63,502 bases of DNA from Verrucomicrobiia bacterium (GTDB lineage Bacteria; Verrucomicrobiota; Verrucomicrobiia; Palsa-1439), in NCBI GenBank assembly GCA_050013395.1, contig JBEKFI010000010.1, positions 1 through 63,502 of the forward strand. Direction: 5' to 3'. Position numbers and translations under genes: made by a program. Of this stretch, positions 1 to 63,502 are shown piece by piece (the first letter of the stretch is position 1; every line of letters starts with the position of its first letter). The notes below the pieces were generated by a model. That model saw only the letters and a program-made list of their open reading frames with translations. It did not search any database and was not told the origin of the DNA.

Positions 1-2481
1 CGGCGTACCGTCCTCGAACAGCCCGACAGTGATGTAGCCTTCGTGACCGGCGATGTCGAACTTGTGGGTGATTGCCTGGCGCGTGTCGGGCAGGCGATGC
101 CGTGCAGGTGCCGCCGAGCGTTCGCGCTGCTCCTTGATCTCTTTTTCGAGTTCGAGGATGCGAGCTTTTAGCTCTTCGACTTCCTTGGCCGCGGCGGCAG
201 CTTGCGTCGAGCCGTTACTCTTCGAGGTGCTGAGTGGCTGGGAACGCTTCGAACCGTCGCGATAGATCGCCACGGCTTTCAAACCGAGTTTCCAACCCTC
301 GATGTAGCTCTGCATGATGTCCTCGACGGTGGACTCCTGCAGCATGTTCACCGTCTTGGAGATCGCGCCGCTGAGGAACGGCTGGACGGCGGCCATCATC
401 TTCAGGTGCGCCATGTAATGGATGCTGCGTTTGCCTTTGGCGGGCTTGAACGCGCAGTCGAACACGGGCAGATGTTTCTCCTGCAAGTGCGGCGCGCCCT
501 CGATCATATCGTTCTCGTCGATGTACTTCACGATGTCAGCAATCTGCTGCTCGTTGTAGCCTCGACTCGAATCCTTCGAGCCAAGTTTCTGCAGCGCCAT
601 TGGCACGGTGCGGTTGACGATCTTTAGCATGCCGCCGCCCGCGAGCAGCTTGTATTTCACCAGCGCGATGTCGGGTTCGACGCCCGTGGTGTCGCAGTCC
701 ATCATGAAGGCGATCGTGCCCGTCGGGGCAAGCACCGTGACCTGCGAGTTGCGGTAGCCGTAGCGGCGACCGAGTTCGACGGCTTCATCACCGCAGCGTT
801 GCGCCGCGTCACGCAAGTAGGTGGGGCAACTTGCGTGGATGTGCTTCACGGCGTCGCGGTGCATCTCCATGACGCCAAGCATCGGTTCGCGGTTTCGGGC
901 GAAGCCTTCGAATGCGCCAGTGCGCTCGGCCATTCGTGCCGAGTGCTTGTAAGCATGAAGGTGCATGATGGCGGTGATAGCGCCCGCCACACCGCGGCCT
1001 TCGTCGGTGTCGTAAGGCAGACCGACCGCCATGATCAACGAGCCGAGGTTGGCGTAGCCGAGACCCAGCGGGCGAAACAGATGACTGTTCAACGTGATTT
1101 CCTCGGTCGGGTAGCTCGCGTTGTCCACGATAATTTCCTGCGCAGTGATGAAGATTTCCACCGCAGCTTTGAAGCGTTCCACGTCGAACGTGCCGTCGTC
1201 GCGGAGGAATTTCATCAGGTTTAGCGACGCCAGGTTGCAGGAGCTGTTGTCGAGAAACATGTACTCGCTGCACGGATTGCTGGAGTTGATGGGCGCGGAG
1301 TTCTTGCAGGTGTGCCAGCGTTGGATTGTGTCTTCGTACTGGACGCCGGGATCGCCGCAAGTCCATGTGCCCTCCGCGATGCCCAACATCAGCTCGCGCG
1401 CCTTGTAGGTCGGCCCGGGCTTCTTCGGGTCGGTCACCCAATGCGTGTGCCAGTCCCGGTCTTCAAGGACGGCGCGCATGAAGTCGTCGGAAACGCGCAC
1501 GGTGAGGTTCTCGTTCTGGAAACAGACCGAGCCGTAGGCATCGCCGTTGAAGTCGCCGGAGTAGCCCTGCGCGATCAATGCCCACGCCTTCTTCTCCTCG
1601 TTGGGCTTGGCCTCAATGAACTCCTTGATGTCGGGATGCCAGCATTTGAGCGTGTTCATCTTGGCGGCACGCCGCGTCTTGCCGCCCGATTTCACGACGC
1701 TGGCAATCGAATCGTACACTTTCAGGAACGACATCGGGCCGCTGGGCCGTCCGCCACCTGAGAGTTTTTCCCGTTTACTGCGCAGCGTGGACAGGTCGGT
1801 GCCCGTGCCACTGCCGTACTTGAATAGCATCGCCTCGCTGCGGGCCAACTCCATGATGTTTTCCATCGTGTCGCCGACCGACTGGATGAAGCAGGCCGAG
1901 CACTGCGGGTACTCGTACTGAGTGGTGGCCTGTTTCACTTTGCCTTCGGATTTATCGAAGTGGAAGTTGCCCGCGCTGCTGTCTCTGCCGACGCCGTACT
2001 GATGATAAAGGCCGCAATTAAACCATACGGGCGAATTGAACGAGCCATACTGATTGACACAGAGCCAAGTCAGTTCGTCGTAAAACGTCTCCGCATCCTT
2101 GTCGCTTGCGAAATAGCCGTCGGCCTTGCCCCAACTGGCAATCGTACGCGCGACGCGATGAATCAGTTGGCGCGCGCTCTGTTCCCGCTCGGGCGTGCCG
2201 TTCTCGCCGTAAAAGTATTTCGAGACAACCACCTTCGTCGCGAGAATCGACCAGCTTTTCGGGACTTCGACATTCTCCTGCTTGAAAATCACTTTGCCCG
2301 CCTCATCGGTGATTTCGGCGGTGCGATGTTCCCACTCGAGTTGGTCGAACGGTTTCACGTCTGCCCGGCTAAACACGCGTGGTACGCTCAGGCCGCTGCT
2401 CCTTGGCACAGCGGTCTGAACAGCCCGCGAGGACTGGCCGCTGCGCTTCGCGCGTTTGCCCGATTCGTTCACGGTTGGCAT
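1..2481 (-). CDS. nrdJ: Class II (adenosylcobalamin-dependent) ribonucleotide reductase; the C-terminal end lies beyond the window start
   Basis: Missing from the ORF track because it is open at the window edge. My minus-strand translation from ATG 2481 reads MPTVNESGKR...YPQCSACFIQSVGD...GSGTGTDLSTLRSKREKLSGGGRPSGPMSF...SNPCSEYMFLDNSSCNLASLNL...HKFDIAGHEGYITVGLFEDGTP with no stop down to position 1. These blocks are typical of NrdJ. Confidence 0.9.
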   Translation of the reverse strand, partial: MPTVNESGKRAKRSGQSSRAVQTAVPRSSGLSVPRVFSRADVKPFDQLEWEHRTAEITDEAGKVIFKQENVEVPKSWSILATKVVVSKYFYGENGTPEREQSARQLIHRVARTIASWGKADGYFASDKDAETFYDELTWLCVNQYGSFNSPVWFNCGLYHQYGVGRDSSAGNFHFDKSEGKVKQATTQYEYPQCSACFIQSVGDTMENIMELARSEAMLFKYGSGTGTDLSTLRSKREKLSGGGRPSGPMSFLKVYDSIASVVKSGGKTRRAAKMNTLKCWHPDIKEFIEAKPNEEKKAWALIAQGYSGDFNGDAYGSVCFQNENLTVRVSDDFMRAVLEDRDWHTHWVTDPKKPGPTYKARELMLGIAEGTWTCGDPGVQYEDTIQRWHTCKNSAPINSSNPCSEYMFLDNSSCNLASLNLMKFLRDDGTFDVERFKAAVEIFITAQEIIVDNASYPTEEITLNSHLFRPLGLGYANLGSLIMAVGLPYDTDEGRGVAGAITAIMHLHAYKHSARMAERTGAFEGFARNREPMLGVMEMHRDAVKHIHASCPTYLRDAAQRCGDEAVELGRRYGYRNSQVTVLAPTGTIAFMMDCDTTGVEPDIALVKYKLLAGGGMLKIVNRTVPMALQKLGSKDSSRGYNEQQIADIVKYIDENDMIEGAPHLQEKHLPVFDCAFKPAKGKRSIHYMAHLKMMAAVQPFLSGAISKTVNMLQESTVEDIMQSYIEGWKLGLKAVAIYRDGSKRSQPLSTSKSNGSTQAAAAAKEVEELKARILELEKEIKEQRERSAAPARHRLPDTRQAITHKFDIAGHEGYITVGLFEDGTP

Positions 2482-2687: not shown

Positions 2688-4130
2688 TCACCTGCATTTT
2701 TTTACAAATCCACTGCCTTCCGTTTGCCTTTCCGCGAATTTTCGGCGCTCTCGCTGGCGCAGATTCAGGCGGATCGGACAGCCCCTAAACCCCCACGCGG
2801 CCCTGATCTTATCAACCAAGAACCGCTCGTAATGGGGCGTCAGACAATGCGCATCGTTGACGAACAACGTCAGCGTCGGCGGACGTGAAGATTTTTGAAA
2901 CGCGTACAAAACTTTGAACCGCTTTCCGTGAACAAACGGCGGCGGATAGGACTCGAGGGCGTGCGTCAACAGCTTGTTCAACTGGGGCGTGTCGATGTGC
3001 TTTGCCATTTCCTGTTCGATCACCTCGATCTCCCCGAACAAATCATTCACGCCCTTCCCTGTTTTTGCCGATACGAACAGGACCGGCGCCCAATCCAGGA
3101 AGAACAGTTCGCGTCGCAACGCCTCCAAGTACTCCTCCCGAAATGGCTTTTTATTCTTCCGCCCTCTTCCTTCTTCGCTCTTCTCTTTTGTCTCTTCCTC
3201 CACGGCCAGATCCCATTTGTTCACCAAGATCATGCATCCACGAGCCGCTTCGCAAATTTGTCCCGCGATCTTCTTGTCCTGTTTCGTCACGCCATCGACG
3301 GCATCCAACACCAACACAGCCACGTCGCAATCGCGGATGCTGCGTTCCGCTCGCATCAAGCCGAACTGATCGACCGAGGTTTTTATCTTTCGCTTGTGCC
3401 GTAGTCCTGCCGTATCGATGAGCACGTAGGGTTTATCATTGAAAATAAATGGCACGTCGATGGAGTCGCGCGTCGTGCGGGGAATCTCGCTGACGATCGT
3501 GCGCTCGCTCTTCAAAATGGAATTGATCAGCGACGACTTCCCCACGTTCGGCCGCCCAACAATGGCAATCCGACTCGGCCTGCCCGTCTCCTCGGCCGAG
3601 GACGAGGTGAATTGTTCCGTTGCTGCGTCGAGCAGCGCCGGTACGCCCAGGCCATGGATCGCCGCGATGGGAAACAGTTTTTCGAAACCAAGCTCGGTGA
3701 ACTCAGTCACGTTTTCCTCGCGCATCTGATTGTCCACCTTGTTCACAGCGAGAAAAACTCTTTTCCCGCTTGCGCGGAGCTTGCGAGCGGTCTCGATGTC
3801 GAGAGGCGTGACGCCGTCCGTAACGTCCACGACCATCACCAGCGCGCTGGCTATTTCAATCGCGATCTCGGCTTGCCGCCGTGTCGCCGCAGCCAGCGCG
3901 TCAGAAGTCTTTTCCTCGTCCATGAACGCGATGCCACCCGTGTCCACGACCTCGAACGTTCTCTCGCGCCACTTCGCCATCGCGCTGACACGGTCGCGCG
4001 TGACGCCCGCTTCTTCGTGCACGATGGCGATGCGCCGCCCCGCGATCCGGTTGAACAGCGCGCTCTTACCGACGTTGGGGCGGCCAACGATGGCGAGAAC
4101 CGGAATGGAGTGATGGAGTGTTGGAGTCAT
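2688..4130 (-). CDS. der: Ribosome-associated GTPase Der/EngA
   Basis: Two tandem GTPase domains (GRPNVGKSALFNR..DTGG..NKVD and GRPNVGKSSLINS..DTAG..NKWD) followed by a C-terminal KH-like region. Confidence 0.92.
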   Translation of the reverse strand: MTPTLHHSIPVLAIVGRPNVGKSALFNRIAGRRIAIVHEEAGVTRDRVSAMAKWRERTFEVVDTGGIAFMDEEKTSDALAAATRRQAEIAIEIASALVMVVDVTDGVTPLDIETARKLRASGKRVFLAVNKVDNQMREENVTEFTELGFEKLFPIAAIHGLGVPALLDAATEQFTSSSAEETGRPSRIAIVGRPNVGKSSLINSILKSERTIVSEIPRTTRDSIDVPFIFNDKPYVLIDTAGLRHKRKIKTSVDQFGLMRAERSIRDCDVAVLVLDAVDGVTKQDKKIAGQICEAARGCMILVNKWDLAVEEETKEKSEEGRGRKNKKPFREEYLEALRRELFFLDWAPVLFVSAKTGKGVNDLFGEIEVIEQEMAKHIDTPQLNKLLTHALESYPPPFVHGKRFKVLYAFQKSSRPPTLTLFVNDAHCLTPHYERFLVDKIRAAWGFRGCPIRLNLRQRERRKFAERQTEGSGFVKKCR

Positions 4131-50136: not shown

Positions 50137-50272
50137 CCTCTTATCAAGAGCGGTCGAGGGACTGGCCCTGTGAAGCCGCGGCAACCGTCCCCCGAAGGAA
50201 TTCGGGGGAGACAAGGTGCCAATTCCAACTCCGAATCCCGATGAACTGTCGGGTAGCGGGGGAAGATGAGGG
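50137..50272 (+). promoter_or_regulatory. SAM-I (S-box) riboswitch
   Basis: CCTCTTATCAAGAGCGGTCGAGGGACTGGCCCTGTGAAGCCGCGGCAACC...GGTGCCAATTCC...AGATGAGGG matches the S-box core (CUUAUCAAGAG.GG.GGAGGGACUGGCCC.AUGAA.CC.GCAACC ... GGUGC.AAUUCC ... AGAUGAG). Confidence 0.85.
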
Positions 50273-56768: not shown

Positions 56769-56858
56769 CGGAGAGGTGGCAGAGTGGTCGAATGCGGCGG
56801 TCTTGAAAACCGTTGGACGCGCGAGCGTCCCGGGGGTTCGAATCCCTCCCTCTCCGCC
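56769..56858 (+). tRNA. tRNA-Ser (anticodon UGA)
   Basis: GGAGAGG acceptor stem pairs with CCTCTCC. Anticodon loop CTTGAAA, long variable arm, TPsiC arm GGGGGTTCGAATCCCTC, and an encoded CCA. Confidence 0.95.
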
Positions 56859-56973
56859 AGTTTCACTTTCATGGAGAAACTGGGGCGACGGTGACGAATC
56901 CAGTTTGGTTCGTGCCGAGGAAGAAGCCGACGCCGATGTTTCGCTTCTTGGCTCCTCACCCATTTACTTCTTG

Positions 56974-58058: not shown

Positions 58059-58334
58059 GACGCTGCTCGCGCGGGGAAGAAAGGATAGTTCTTTAGGAGT
58101 AACCAATTTTTGCTTGGCACGGCGCGGCTGTGCTGTCGTCGTGTCGGGTTTTTTGTCGTCCACGCGGGCGACAAGCGGTTCTTTGAAAATTGAATTGTGC
58201 GATACGTGAGAGCCCACGTTCGTTCCGATCACAAGTCGGAGCGAGCTTTGAGTAAAGTAAGTAGATCGATCGGTTAGCCCCGATCGGTCGGCTCAAAGTG
58301 AGATCGATCAGATCTTCGGGTCTGAGAGATTTTT

Positions 58335-59906
<1,572 letters not shown>

Positions 59907-60098: not shown

Positions 60099-60174
60099 GG
60101 GGCCGTAGCTCAGTTGGGAGAGCGCCTGGTTTGCAACCAGGAGGTCACGAGTTCAAACCTCGTCGGCTCCACCA
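60099..60174 (+). tRNA. tRNA-Ala (anticodon UGC)
   Basis: Acceptor stem GGGGCCG/CGGCTCC with G3:U70, anticodon loop TTTGCAA, and an encoded CCA. Confidence 0.97.
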
Positions 60175-60194
60175 ACCGGCCACGCACTCCGCTG

Positions 60195-60271
60195 GGGCGC
60201 GTAGCTCAGTTGGTTAGAGCATGCGCTTGATAAGCGCAGGGTCATAGGTTCGAATCCTATCGCGCCCACCA
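60195..60271 (+). tRNA. tRNA-Ile (anticodon GAU)
   Basis: Acceptor stem GGGCGCG/CGCGCCC, anticodon loop TTGATAA, and an encoded CCA. Confidence 0.97.
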
Positions 60272-60381: not shown

Positions 60382-60988
60382 ATTTCCTCGACGCTTTGCG
60401 TCGCGGATGTTCTTTGACAATTGCATACAGTGTAGTGGGTAAAACTACAACAATGCTGAGAATATTCGGTCTGGAACTCCGAAAGGAGAACCGGACGGAT
60501 AGTTTGTGATCAAGCTACTAAGAGCGCAGGGCGGATGCCTTGGCGACAAGAGGCGAAGAAGGACGTAGTAAGTTGCGAAAAGCCACGGGGAGCGGCAAAC
60601 ACGCTTTGATCCGTGGATGTCCGAATGGGGGAACCCATCCATAGTAATATCTGGATACAGTGGTCTGAATTCAATAGGACCATATGAGCCATACCCGGTG
60701 AAGTGAAACATCTCAGTAACCGGAGGAATAGAAAGAGCACATCGATTCCCTGAGTAGTGGCGAGCGAAACGGGAACAGCCTAAACCTCGACACTTGTGTC
60801 GGGGGGTTGCGGGACCGCGGTGTGGTACGCAGAGAGTTAGCAGAAGGCTTTGGAAACAGCCCCCAAAGAGTGTGAGAGGCACGTAAGCAAAAACTCAAAG
60901 CGGCCTAGCGGTATCCCAAGTAAGACGGCACACGTGAAACGTTGTCTGAATCCGCGCCGACCACGGCGTAAGGCTAAATACTCCTTGT

Positions 60989-61047
<59 letters not shown>

Positions 61048-61086
61048 CAAAAGAACCTGAAACCCTGTGCTTACAATGTGTCATAG

Positions 61087-61378
61087 CCCAGCCCTTTCTG
61101 GGGCTACAAACGAAAACTATGCATTAGGTGTATGTGCTGAAGAAGCCAAAGAGCGACGCTCTCTATTACGGGTATACGTCGGATCTCCGACGCCGACTGC
61201 GAGAGCACCAAGCATCCGAGCATCGGGGATGGGACTTGGTGTACTACGAAGCCTACCGTGATGAGTGTGACGCTCGCGGGCGTGAACAGATGCAGAAGCA
61301 TTATGGTTCAGCGCGTGGAAAGCTCAAAGCGCGTCTCAGAAGCATAGTTTGAAGGTTGAAGACTTAGAAAGGGCTGGG
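61087..61378 (+). other. Intervening sequence (IVS) replacing the helix-25 tip of 23S rRNA
   Basis: Flanked by CTGAAACCCTGTGCTTACAATGTGTCATAG and TGATGGCCTGCCTTTTGCATAATGAG, which align to E. coli positions around 510-580. Closed by the perfect inverted repeat CCCAGCCCTTT / AAAGGGCTGGG plus an extended inner stem. Confidence 0.8.
61128..61352 (+). CDS. Small GIY-YIG nuclease-family protein encoded inside the 23S IVS
   Basis: The 74-aa protein is MYVLKKPKSDALYYGYTSDLRRRLREHQASEHRGWDLVYYEAYRDECDARGREQMQKHYGSARGKLKARL. This follows the Y-x-L / Y-x-G-x-T / R-R-x-x-E-H / V-Y-x-E / RE-x-x-x-K order of COG2827-type GIY-YIG proteins. GTG start. Confidence 0.65.
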   Translation: MYVLKKPKSDALYYGYTSDLRRRLREHQASEHRGWDLVYYEAYRDECDARGREQMQKHYGSARGKLKARLRSIV

Positions 61379-62310
61379 TGATGGCCTGCCTTTTGCATAA
61401 TGAGTCTGCGAGTTATTGTCAGTGGCAAGGCTAATCCCGCTAGGAGCGGGAGGAGCCGCAGCGAAAGCGAGTCTGAATAGGGCGACCAGTCGCTGGCAAT
61501 AGACCCGAAGCGGAGGCGATCTACGCTTGGCCAGGGTGAAGGCTGGGTAACACCAGCTGGAGGCCCGAACGGGTGAATGTTGAAAAATTCTCCGATGAGT
61601 TGAGCGTAGGAGCGAAAGACTAAACAAGCCCCGTCATAGCTGGTTCTCCCCGAAATATATTGAGGTATAGCGTCCGGCCACTAGCGCGCGGAGGTAGAGC
61701 ACTGGATGGGATAGGAGCCTTACCGGGCTACCGAATCCAACCAAACTCCGAATGCCGCGTTGCACTACCCGGGCAGTCAGACGGTGGGGGATAAGCTTCA
61801 TCGTCGAGAGTGAAACATAAACAGACTATCAGCTAAGGTGCCTAAATGACGTTTAGTGGAAAGGATGTGAGGTTGCTAAGACAGTGAGGATGTTGGCTTA
61901 GAGGCAGCCATCATTTAAACAGTGCGTAACAGCTGACTCATCGAGCGATCTCGCGCCGAAAATGATTGGCGATCAAACGTCATACCGAAGCTATGGATTC
62001 ATTCCCGCCTCGGCGGGAGTGAGTGGTAGGGGAGCGTTCCAAGTACATTGAAGGTGGAAGGTGACTGAAACTGGAGTGCTTGGAAGTGAGAATGCAGACA
62101 CGAGTAGCGATAAAGTCGGTTAAATTCCGACTCGCCGTAAACCCAAGGTTTCCTGGGGAAGGTTCGTCCGCCCAGGGTTAGTCGGGACCTAAGTCGAGGC
62201 CGTAAGGCGTAGATGATGGACGGTTGGTTAATATTCCAACACCACCTTGGTTTAAGCTGTAAGGAACCCAGAAGGGAAAGCGGGCCACCGATTGAAAGTG
62301 GTGGTCGTTG

Positions 62311-62409
62311 CCCAGCCCTTTTAGCTGCTTTCAAGGTTCGTGAGCTAGTCGAAGCACTTGATCGTGCGCAATCTAGCGAGCGACTTGCAAGGCGGTTAAA
62401 AGGGCTGGG
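62311..62409 (+). other. Second 23S insertion with the same terminal inverted repeat as the helix-25 IVS
   Basis: CCCAGCCCTTTT ... AAAAGGGCTGGG encloses 75 nt of imperfect hairpin. It lies in the domain III variable hairpin region between GGTTAATATTCC and AAACCGACACAGGTGG. No ORF. Confidence 0.7.
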
Positions 62410-62788
62410 TGAAGGACGTGGCGACTACGGTCAAAGCGGATCCGCCGCACTCACGCTGGCGAGAAAAGCCTTGCAGTGTTCACCAGGGTGCCCGTACCGG
62501 AAACCGACACAGGTGGGTGAGATGAGTATTCTCAGGCGCGCGAGTGAAATCTCTCTAAGGAACTCGGCACATTAGCCCCGTAACTTCGGAAGAAGGGGCG
62601 CCCCGGAGGGTCAGATTATATCAAAGCCCATTGGGGCCGCAGTGAAAGGCGCTCTACGACTGTTTAACAAAAACACAGCTCTGTGCGAACTCGCAAGAGA
62701 CGGTATACAGAGTGACAAGTGACCAATGCGGAAAGATTAAGGCAAGGGGTCAGTCCCGCGCAAGCGGGGCGAAGCTCTGAACTTAAGT

Positions 62789-62868
<80 letters not shown>

Positions 62869-63384
62869 TTGTAACGAGAGAGCGACTGTCTCGGAGAGAG
62901 GCTCGGCGAAACTGTAGTGGCGGTGAAGATGCCGCCTACCCGCAGTAGGACGGAAAGACCCCGTGCACCTTTACTGTAAGCTGATATTGGACTTTGGTGT
63001 GTGATGCGTAGCGTAGGTGGGACCCTTTGAAACCGAGCTCTCGGGTTCGGCGGAGGGGACAATGAAACACCACTCTTCGCTCATTAAGGTTCTAACCTCG
63101 CGCCGTAATCCGGCCGAGGGACCGTGTCAGCGGGTCAGTTTGACTGGGGCGGTTTCCTCCCAAAGAGTAACGGAGGAGCGCGAAGCTTGGCTCAGCTTGG
63201 TTGGCAATCAAGCGTTGAGGGTATGCCTACAAGCCAGGCTCACTGTGAGACCTACAAGTCGAGCAGACACGAAAGTGGGCGCAAGTGATCCGGCGGTAGA
63301 ATGTGGAATTGCCGTCGCTCATCGGACAAAAGGTACGCCGGGGATAACAGGCTTATCGGGCCCAAGAGTTCACATCGACGGCCC

Positions 63385-63425
<41 letters not shown>

Positions 63426-63457
63426 GAGAAGGTCCCAAGGGTCCGGCTGTTCGCCGG

Positions 63458-63502
<45 letters not shown>

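Follow-up and report, generated by a model that had tools for sequence, protein, structure and literature searches.

Positions 1 to 63,502 of contig JBEKFI010000010.1 from a Verrucomicrobiia bacterium (63,502 nucleotides (nt), hereafter the window) end within an rRNA operon whose 23S rRNA gene carries two inserts (61087-61378 and 62311-62409). The larger one is an intervening sequence (IVS) that holds a small open reading frame (ORF) for a predicted GIY-YIG nuclease. Alignment of 60508-63502 to the Rfam bacterial large subunit (LSU) rRNA model left about 290 nt unaligned inside the hairpin that follows model position 583, and pairwise MAFFT alignment with the annotated E. coli 23S rRNA (L030) mapped the insert between E. 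coli positions ~528/540 and 552, the tip of helix 25 (H25; hairpin at E. coli ~533-560). A preliminary description of this DNA, made by eye, had placed 292 nt between conserved 23S flanks at this tip. The covariance model and the E. coli alignment agree on that position, and the 292 nt behave as an unaligned insertion, not as ordinary conserved helices. The native 5' strand of H25, at 61080-61086, is invariant in four orthologous loci and is also placed by the E. coli alignment. An Rfam scan found neither group I nor group II intron families above threshold anywhere in the window. The block at 61087-61378 is a stem-loop IVS of the helix-25 class and not a self-splicing intron, as had been proposed.

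The same block was found at the same site in L001, L002, L009 and L031-L036. The copy in L031, an independent contig, is identical to that of the window. Orthologous blocks occupy the helix-25 site in at least ten contigs that come from different samples, one of them a long-read contig of 119 kb.

The insert is closed by a long stem. The sequence CCCAGCCCTTT at 61087-61097 has its exact reverse complement at 61368-61378, which confirms the perfect 11-bp closing stem described earlier, and the only other copies of this 11-mer repeat in the window lie at 62311/62399. The minimum free energy (MFE) of the region 61075-61395 was -134.7 kcal/mol (z = -6.2), and none of 100 shuffled sequences folded as well. 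From outside to inside, the fold comprises 5 bp of the native H25 stem, a 17-bp run with G-U pairs that includes the 11-bp CCCAGCCCTTT duplex, and an inner 9-bp stem. Past CCCAGCCCTTTCT, the RNA stem runs on via G-U pairs to ~61103. Of the inward extension proposed earlier, the AAACUAUGC/GCAUAGUUU part is indeed paired, whereas the remainder is only loosely so; this pairing sequesters the ancestral ATG of the ORF and overlaps its stop codon. Comparison of the window with L001, L002 and L009 showed 24 closing base pairs, none of them broken and four of them compensatory with both sides changed (CCCAGCCCTTT/AAAGGGCTGGG versus CCCCGCTCATT/AATGAGCGGGG). The closing stem is at least 24 bp long and is kept by compensatory change. 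With its 17-bp run and 24 consensus pairs, the predicted stem reaches the length of an RNase III-type substrate, a duplex of some two helical turns or longer.

A search of the 74-codon ORF against Pfam gave a match to the GIY-YIG family PF01541 (E 7.7e-8, 33.0 bits) above its gathering score of 22.6, together with a sub-threshold match to T5orf172. The GIY-YIG residue order that had been read from the translation is therefore borne out, and the catalytic residues are conserved: Y2 (of GIY), Y13 (of YIG), R23, H27 and E53 are among 20 invariant columns of nine divergent members, and the family-invariant residues also include G15 and E41. The ORF had been set apart from the S23p family, and no PF05635 (S23p/23S_rRNA_IVP) match was found in it. 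The best sequence matches in the PDB were the UPF0213 protein BH0048 (E 7e-7), I-TevI and SLX1, and the catalytic residues align with those of BH0048 and I-TevI. An AlphaFold2 model built on a four-sequence alignment (pLDDT 73) has the element order beta-beta-alpha-beta-alpha. Its top Foldseek matches, I-TevI (TM 0.50) and BH0048, are both GIY-YIG domains, at E values of 0.5-0.9 that are not significant. Judged from its sequence, the window ORF is a minimal single-domain GIY-YIG protein and a predicted nuclease.

A first, word-indexed protein search returned three relatives of the ORF. Two of them, P0001 (70% identity) and P0002 (65% identity), are encoded on short contigs that are 23S genes with an insert at the same place. 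Relatives are mostly 75-130 amino acids (aa) long, and the window protein has a shorter C-terminus than its counterparts in L001 and L002. The ORF frequently extends into the 3' repeat; GAA AGG GCT GGG TGA is there translated as ...ERAG-stop. No relative was found among IMG/VR viral contigs and no match in PHROGs and PADLOC, so that a phage or defence origin is not supported; NCBIfam gave noise only. A tblastn search of PLSDB plasmids returned four distant GIY-YIG genes only (37-43% identity), of use only as Ssn-like controls (see below).

Among the same-site ORF copies of the window, L001, L002 and L009, synonymous differences are saturated (pS 0.67-0.78), with pN of 0.22-0.27. The pN/pS ratio was 0.29-0.40 and dN/dS, where computable, 0.14-0.20. 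The window-type ORF is kept by purifying selection: its frame is conserved in homologous IVS copies, with a dN/dS of about 0.15-0.2 and not close to 1. The start codon has changed. ATG 61119 is the start in orthologues, and the window and the identical L031 have an in-frame TAG at 61125 where orthologues have TAC, so translation must begin at GTG 61128 or at 61134. In L009, a 1-nt deletion after codon ~27 (position ~4080-4090) leads to an early stop, and the codons downstream of it show a dN/dS of 0.14 against L002, so that they still look selected.

The wider family was analyzed in a set of 109 loci, consisting of 26 loci from GTDB species genomes, 80 from metagenomes, and L001-L003. These loci were chosen by their ORF relatives and all carry the element by construction; within this scope, no IVS-less helix-25 allele of a close relative was found. 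Of the 103 loci with sufficient flanking sequence, 82 had an enclosing inverted repeat with a score of at least 12, compared with 0.3% for shuffled flanks. The repeats are 12-26 bp long, start with CCC and end with GGG, and delimit elements of 258-333 nt, mostly 278-300 nt, with the end consensus.aG/CCCaGC.CtT ... G.GCtGGG/Tga (slashes mark the element boundaries). The insert is therefore a discrete module, in which a single-domain GIY-YIG gene is packed between CCC...GGG terminal inverted repeats that form a long stem.

Ends of the rRNA type, CCC[A/C]GC.C.TTC / GAA.G.GC[T/G]GGG, recur in Verrucomicrobia and Patescibacteria. They are nearly the same across phyla and across different 23S hairpins, namely H25, helix 52 (H52), helix 63 (H63) and helix 68 (H68) (Table 1); the C-type variant of these ends reads CCCCGCTCATTC. 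In a neighbour-joining protein tree (74 columns, low resolution), members from H25, H63 and H68 were mixed in one clade, and the end type tracked the protein clade. Some Patescibacteria-like 23S genes contain two ORF-bearing GIY-YIG elements at different hairpins, in the combinations H25+H63, ~276+H52 and H63+H68.

Other clades, with other CCC...GGG ends, are found in 16S rRNA genes, in RNase P RNA genes, at tRNA 5' ends and in two conserved non-coding contexts. In L083 (686-987) and L090 (135-439), the element interrupts the V2 region of a 16S rRNA gene at E. coli ~180-190, with ...AAUACCCGAUAGU on one side and UAAAGUCGCAAGAC on the other; the elements L103 2936-3762 and L109 3476-4117 lie in or abut RNase P RNA genes. 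Elements abutting the 5' end of a tRNA gene were detected in L011 (3969-4271, Ile), L014 (2249-2532, Tyr), L016 (3968-4254, Pro), L071 (2481-2785, Val), L089 (3463-3761, Val) and L100 (1925-2242, Ala). At these sites the terminal GGG of the element doubles as the tRNA start, and in six of seven distinct cases a 10-12 nt direct repeat upstream of the element contains a second copy of the first 7-11 nt of the tRNA (null expectation for a repeat of at least 9 nt, 0.14%). An intact tRNA therefore remains downstream. From its sequence, the direct repeat at the tRNA copies looks like a target-site duplication that regenerates the intact tRNA.

The two non-coding contexts were not assigned to any family by Rfam at E <= 0.01. 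In L037, L039, L055, L059, L064, L093 (weakly) and L099, the element sits in one hairpin of a shared non-coding leader, ...CACATGAGGCC..ACTTAyGGA..GAAGCGA..TAAGTTGT..GGCyGAATGTG(element)TCAATTCGG...GGCTCCGTAAC..GTG..CTCATTGAAGGAGG, followed by an ATG; this conserved leader may be an undescribed cis-regulatory RNA. L008, L080 and L096 share the second conserved non-coding host, ...GTCTAAATTTT..GAACAAAATTTAG..AAAACCTTT(element)GCTCAATGTTGTAG...

The second insert of the window 23S gene contains no ORF and occupies the hairpin at E. coli ~1484, which we take, by our own numbering, to be helix 58 (H58). A first assignment to helix 45 was dropped on the basis of the E. coli position and of a local cmscan, which placed it at model ~1516-1560, flanked by the H57 and H59 hairpins. 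Its ends, CCCAGCCCTTTT (62311-62322) and AAAAGGGCTGGG (62398-62409), are identical over 12 bp to the ends of the H25 element and share with it the lineage-specific A at position 4, which argues for activity after the lineages split. This insert is present in L031 and absent from L009 (a close relative), L034 and L043. Cognate ORF-less hairpins recur in the family: a single additional hairpin whose ends match those of the resident element is present in L046 and in L087, L106 is a further case, and the RNase P RNA of L103 holds two more with the same ends (~3044-3170 and ~3359-3421), which explain its unusual length. In L069, a non-rRNA locus with an ORF-bearing element at 1343-1625, gene ends in a stretch of 5 kb bear four additional hairpins of 41-112 nt, in an arrangement similar to that of repetitive extragenic palindromic (REP) sequences. 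G-U (G-T) pairs give the sense-strand stem a higher stability than its antisense counterpart in 48 of 66 elements. This asymmetry fits a structure working in the transcript or in one DNA strand.

Table 1. Features of the window rRNA operon and of related elements at other loci
Feature	Locus	Position	Strand	Basis or remark
16S rRNA gene	window	58333-59897		same rRNA operon, at the window end
tRNA-Ala	window	60099-60174		16S-23S spacer of the window operon
tRNA-Ile	window	60195-60271		16S-23S spacer of the window operon
23S rRNA gene	window	60508-63502	+	Rfam RF02541, 2334.5 bits; truncated by the window end, model positions 1-2632 of 2925
Native H25 5' strand, GUCAUAG	window	61080-61086	+	GUCAU pairs with AUGGC at 61381-61385 (MFE fold)
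IVS element, 292 nt in place of the H25 tip (E. coli ~540-552)	window	61087-61378	+	LSU model and E. coli alignment
5' terminal inverted repeat, CCCAGCCCTTTCT	window	61087-61099	+	rRNA-type end consensus CCC[A/C]GC.C.T.c.
Inner stem, AAACUAUGC	window	61114-61122	+	pairs with GCAUAGUUU at 61342-61350 (MFE fold)
Relic of the ancestral start, ATG-CAT-TAG	window	61119-61127	+	orthologues have ATG-xAx-TAC in the same frame
74-codon ORF, GTG start to TGA, predicted single-domain GIY-YIG nuclease	window	61128-61352	+	Pfam PF01541
3' terminal inverted repeat, AGAAAGGGCTGGG	window	61366-61378	+	closing stem covariation
Second IVS, ORF-less, 99 nt (H58, E. coli ~1484)	window	62311-62409	+	fold z = -9.35
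Element ends, CCCAGCCCTTTC / GAAAGGGCTGGG	window	H25		
Element ends, CCCCGCCATTTT / AAAATGGCGGGG	L010 (Kazan)	H25		
Element ends, CCCCGCCCTTTC / GAAAGGGCGGGG	L004 (Saccharimonadales)	H63, E. coli 1702-1769		
Element ends, CCCCGCTCTTTC / GAAAGAGCGGGG	L007 (Microgenomates)	H52, ~1362		
Element ends, CCCAGCCCATTC / GAATGGGCTGGG	L054	H68, 1853-1890		
Two-element 23S gene	L004	1306-1494, 2696-2953		
Two-element 23S gene	L007/L072-75			
Two-element 23S gene	L040-42			
Two-element 23S gene	L046	3366-3614, 4777-5007		
Extra ORF-less hairpins	L069	777-888, 2790-2830, 3740-3780, 4325-4365		ends CCCCGCACTTTC...GAAAGTGCGGGG, as in the resident element

A scan of GTDB species identified L009, a 119-kb contig of a Verrucomicrobiae metagenome-assembled genome with the same 23S arrangement, whose 16S is 93% identical to that of the window. 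Over 13 H25 carriers, ORF identity correlates with rRNA-flank identity (Spearman 0.78), so that much of the history of the element at this site is vertical. Other pairs depart from this pattern. L001 and L034 have flanks that are 98% identical and ORFs that are only 59% identical, and the L001 ORF is 78% identical to that of L035, with flanks at just 82%. Two element lineages, A-type and C-type, with proteins that are ~59-62% identical, occur in hosts whose rRNA flanks are 95-98% identical. From these sequences, the presence of both lineages at H25 in near-identical hosts suggests re-invasion of the same site, with the caveat that short metagenomic rRNA contigs can be chimeric.

IVSs of 23S rRNA that are excised by RNase III at helices 25 and 45 occur in Salmonella, Yersinia, Proteus, Campylobacter and others, and the classic enterobacterial ones are gene-less and ~90-110 nt long. 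The window insert resembles the classic helix-25 IVSs in that it replaces the helix-25 tip with a long perfect or near-perfect duplex, is non-self-splicing and is sporadic. It differs from them by its conserved nuclease gene and by ends that it shares with inserts in further hairpins and RNA genes. The IVSs of the S23p/23S_rRNA_IVP type (PF05635; Leptospira, Coxiella) are likewise 23S stem-loops with inverted repeats and a small conserved ORF; the window element encodes a protein of another family, GIY-YIG, and S23p has, to our knowledge, no known catalytic activity.

The sporadic distribution of helix-25 IVSs suggests horizontal spread, according to Tsurumaki et al. (2024, PMC11270868). That paper records GIY-YIG ORFs in rRNA insertions of candidate phyla radiation (CPR) bacteria, all of them in non-intron inserts, and credits its reference 2 with their first identification. 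The CPR inserts are the same phenomenon, since the relatives of the window ORF include Saccharimonadales, Microgenomates and Kazan 23S inserts. The preliminary description had presented such a gene in a stem-loop IVS as uncharacterised, and as a statement of novelty this was too strong: these ORFs were already catalogued, without characterisation. Tsurumaki et al. listed ORFs by Pfam domain only and in CPR bacteria only, whereas the window is verrucomicrobial. The terms "inverted repeat" and "palindrom" are absent from the text of PMC11270868, and we found nothing in the passages retrieved on ORF-less cognate hairpins or on copies in tRNA and RNase P RNA genes. The present analysis adds the module structure, the finding that its ends are conserved at different sites and in different phyla, the ORF-less hairpins that share these ends, and a link to Ssn-like proteins.

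SsnA of Neisseria meningitidis is a 94-aa single-domain GIY-YIG protein that binds its cognate hairpin repeat (NTS/SRM) only as single-stranded DNA (ssDNA) and cuts beside the repeat (Chenal et al. 2025, PMC11893778). The ssn genes are usually flanked by the repeat and were likened to insertion sequences (PMC11893778); the words rRNA and tRNA do not occur in that paper. The window family shares with Ssn/SRM a single-domain GIY-YIG protein of less than 100 aa, a gene bracketed by a lineage-specific hairpin repeat with extra ORF-less copies elsewhere, the co-variation of protein and repeat, and a CCCGC/GCGGG-like hairpin core. Profile comparison with hhalign matched the window family to SRM-flanked Ssn-like proteins with a probability of 98.9% (E 2e-17, 33% identity), and its similarity to UPF0213 BH0048 is about equal (31%). 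The two systems differ in architecture: the window gene lies inside one long hairpin whose halves flank it, whereas the Ssn gene lies between two separate small hairpins, and the window elements reside within stable-RNA genes. The hallmark of Ssn loci, a repeat that flanks the gene and recurs elsewhere, is thus found here in modified form, as two halves of one hairpin. By analogy, Ssn/SRM is the closest characterised counterpart of the window module.

Two of the plasmid loci are worth recording. The plasmid pShin-01 of Shinella sp. HZN7 (L111 1330-1932) has a 94-aa GIY-YIG gene with four canonical SRM hairpins (CGTCATCCTCGGGCTTGACCCGAGGATCC), a textbook Ssn-type locus that served as a positive control. 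In plasmid p1 of Planktothrix agardhii (L114), a similar GIY-YIG gene is located between an MmeI-type restriction-modification gene and the DISARM gene drmA.

Another analogy is offered by the "REPtrons", in which REP/BIME repeats are associated with a RAYT protein (an IS200/IS605-like Y1 transposase). In both cases a lone nuclease gene lies between inverted copies of its own palindromic repeat, non-autonomous copies exist, and recognition of a hairpin in one DNA strand is plausible. The fold is HUH/Y1 in one and GIY-YIG in the other, and REPs are extragenic and high-copy, whereas copies of the window family are few and lie inside RNA genes. The homing endonucleases of group I introns, I-TevI and I-BmoI, share with the window protein the catalytic fold, the motif order and a location embedded in a conserved host gene. 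The window element has neither a DNA-binding domain nor a self-splicing intron, and its target is not constant, so that the features that define I-TevI-type elements, namely a separate DNA-binding domain and one conserved target with host-defined ends, are not found in this family.

Ends that stay constant while the target varies (H25, H52, H63, H68, 16S, RNase P RNA, tRNA 5' ends) mark the element as a hairpin module of transposon-like or Ssn-like kind, and not as the product of a site-specific homing enzyme. We consider it reasonably probable, taking the whole chain together, that the insert is a hairpin-bounded module that is trimmed by RNase III and whose nuclease acts on its own hairpin and drives its copying to new sites. 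From what is known of helix-25/45 IVSs, RNase III would cut the stem of at least 24 bp in the precursor rRNA, and the ends would not be rejoined. The mature 23S rRNA is predicted to consist of pieces of ~579 nt, ~932 nt and the remainder, and removal of the stem-loop from the pre-23S rRNA would make the insert tolerable for the ribosome. The excised RNA of ~290 nt, or the precursor, could serve as the nuclease message. By analogy with Ssn/SRM, the protein would then recognise its own cognate hairpin in sense-strand ssDNA and nick beside it. This nick would cause the hairpin, either alone or together with the gene, to be copied into empty alleles and into further sites that can form hairpins. 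Where the host is an essential stable-RNA gene, only insertions whose hairpin is tolerated or trimmed would survive.

Several observations weigh against this proposal. Inspection of the flanks revealed no convincing target-site duplication at rRNA sites, and such duplications are clear only for the tRNA-abutting copies. Elements may be confined to hairpin tips through survivorship instead of targeting. Short metagenome rRNA contigs, which are prone to chimeric assembly, make up many of the loci, and related sequences are not independent, so that the p-value of the strand asymmetry is optimistic. The structure model is mediocre and its structural matches are non-significant. The ancestral ATG of the window is cut off by the TAG, which makes a GTG start necessary, without a clear Shine-Dalgarno sequence, and the orthologous ORF of L009 is either a pseudogene or affected by a long-read error. 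As for the Ssn analogy, the SRM motif HGTCWYN(0-2)YYVSBRHN(0-5)WNVSBRGN(0-2)RNCYNB had no match in the window or within 80 nt of the 109 elements, with a regular expression that does find NTS and the four SRMs around the Shinella plasmid gene, and the C-terminal ...NPxW... (MNPxW.DL) tail of SRM-flanked proteins is missing from the window family. With both missing, Ssn-like behaviour is an analogy only.

The preliminary description saw in the ORF a homing-endonuclease-type fold that would spread the IVS. Its core, an H25 IVS with a GIY-YIG gene that implies a mechanism of mobility, holds, and "homing" is probably not the right name for that mechanism. In classic homing, the protein would be a site-specific endonuclease cutting both strands of helix-25 rDNA that lacks the IVS, and gene conversion would then copy the IVS between rrn copies and lineages. 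In favour of this, rDNA is an ideal conserved homing target, related elements occupy H25 in Verrucomicrobia, Kazan and several other hosts, and the two element lineages in near-identical-flank hosts hint at re-invasion; the recurrence of elements at H25 in several phyla leaves room for site-directed re-invasion. Nevertheless, we regard homing as unlikely. A single domain of 74 aa lacks the linker and DNA-binding modules of I-TevI-type enzymes, the closest protein relatives sit at H63, H68 and H52, that is, at several targets within one clade, and what is conserved is the element ends and not the flanks. ORF-less copies with the same ends are found at unrelated sites, and the incongruence between flanks and ORFs stems in part from short and possibly chimeric metagenome contigs. 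A decidedly improbable reading is that of a domesticated gene, in which the element is immobile, the nuclease is kept for the cell (in DNA repair or recombination, in the restriction of incoming ssDNA that has been proposed for Neisseria SsnA, or in rRNA precursor processing) and the operon provides strong transcription. Long-term purifying selection with saturated synonymous sites, which is unlike the gain-decay-loss cycle of selfish homing genes, would suit such a role, as would retention of the module across a verrucomicrobial clade (16S 93%, 23S flanks 90-96%), and SsnA modulates transformation in Neisseria (PMC11893778). However, SsnA neither binds nor cuts RNA (PMC11893778), and neither the lost ancestral start of the window nor the frameshift in L009 is expected of an essential host function. 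The sporadic occurrence across phyla and sites, the multiple copies per rRNA gene in some hosts and the cognate ORF-less copies point to ongoing or recent mobility.

The window copy could also be a decaying relic, inactive and now an RNase III-trimmed expansion of helix 25, whose ORF is open by inheritance. The in-frame TAG after the ancestral ATG in the window and its twin L031, the shortened C-terminus and the lack of a clear ribosome-binding site would agree with this, and the dN/dS of distant copies is blind to very recent inactivation. Yet all catalytic and family-invariant residues are intact in this copy, 74 codons remain open from a GTG located exactly where the conserved domain begins, and the H58 hairpin carries the window lineage's own end variant, with A at position 4, so that we give this explanation a very low probability. 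An artefact, either an assembly chimera or chance features mistaken for an ORF and a stem, has a practically negligible one. Metagenome assembly of rRNA operons is difficult, but the independent contig L031 is identical, orthologous inserts at the same site come from at least ten contigs of different samples, and chance could hardly account for the profile match, the covariation or the dN/dS values; the possibility of a chimera raised beforehand can therefore be set aside. The hairpin-bounded module remains our preferred reading.

These data connect one family of IVSs with a defined module that carries a gene and has conserved ends, and connect this module with the Ssn ssDNA nucleases, the sole characterised single-domain GIY-YIG enzymes. 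They extend GIY-YIG-bearing rRNA inserts from CPR bacteria to Verrucomicrobia, and the same module type colonises RNase P RNA, 16S and tRNA genes. The module may explain how rRNA inserts arise and spread, a question now approachable with a protein of 74-86 aa and a 30-nt hairpin. If the proteins of this family are hairpin-specific ssDNA nucleases with many distinct specificities, they would also be a source of candidate tools. A broader interpretation, which we put forward tentatively and consider doubtful at present, is that an unrecognised class of bacterial mobile elements has left rRNA stem-loop IVSs, and the inserts in RNase P RNA, 16S, conserved leader RNAs and at tRNA 5' ends, as its footprints. 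Under this same tentative interpretation, the lone gene of the ~290-bp element would in effect be a GIY-YIG "transposase" acting on its own terminal hairpin in ssDNA, with non-autonomous derivatives, and the element would persist specifically in stable-RNA genes because its hairpin can be trimmed from the transcript by RNase III or RNase P. If true, this would provide a mechanism for the origin of IVSs and their patchy distribution.

Some further features of the window were recorded. In the 16S-23S spacer (60099-60271), tRNA-Ala(tgc) precedes tRNA-Ile(gat), the reverse of the common order, which is Ile then Ala. ARAGORN also called an antisense tRNA-Gln over the tRNA-Ala, which is probably spurious. 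Outside the rRNA operon, a tRNA-Ser(tga) is located at 56770-56859, and a SAM-I riboswitch (RF00162, 82 bits) was detected at 50138-50272 on the + strand.

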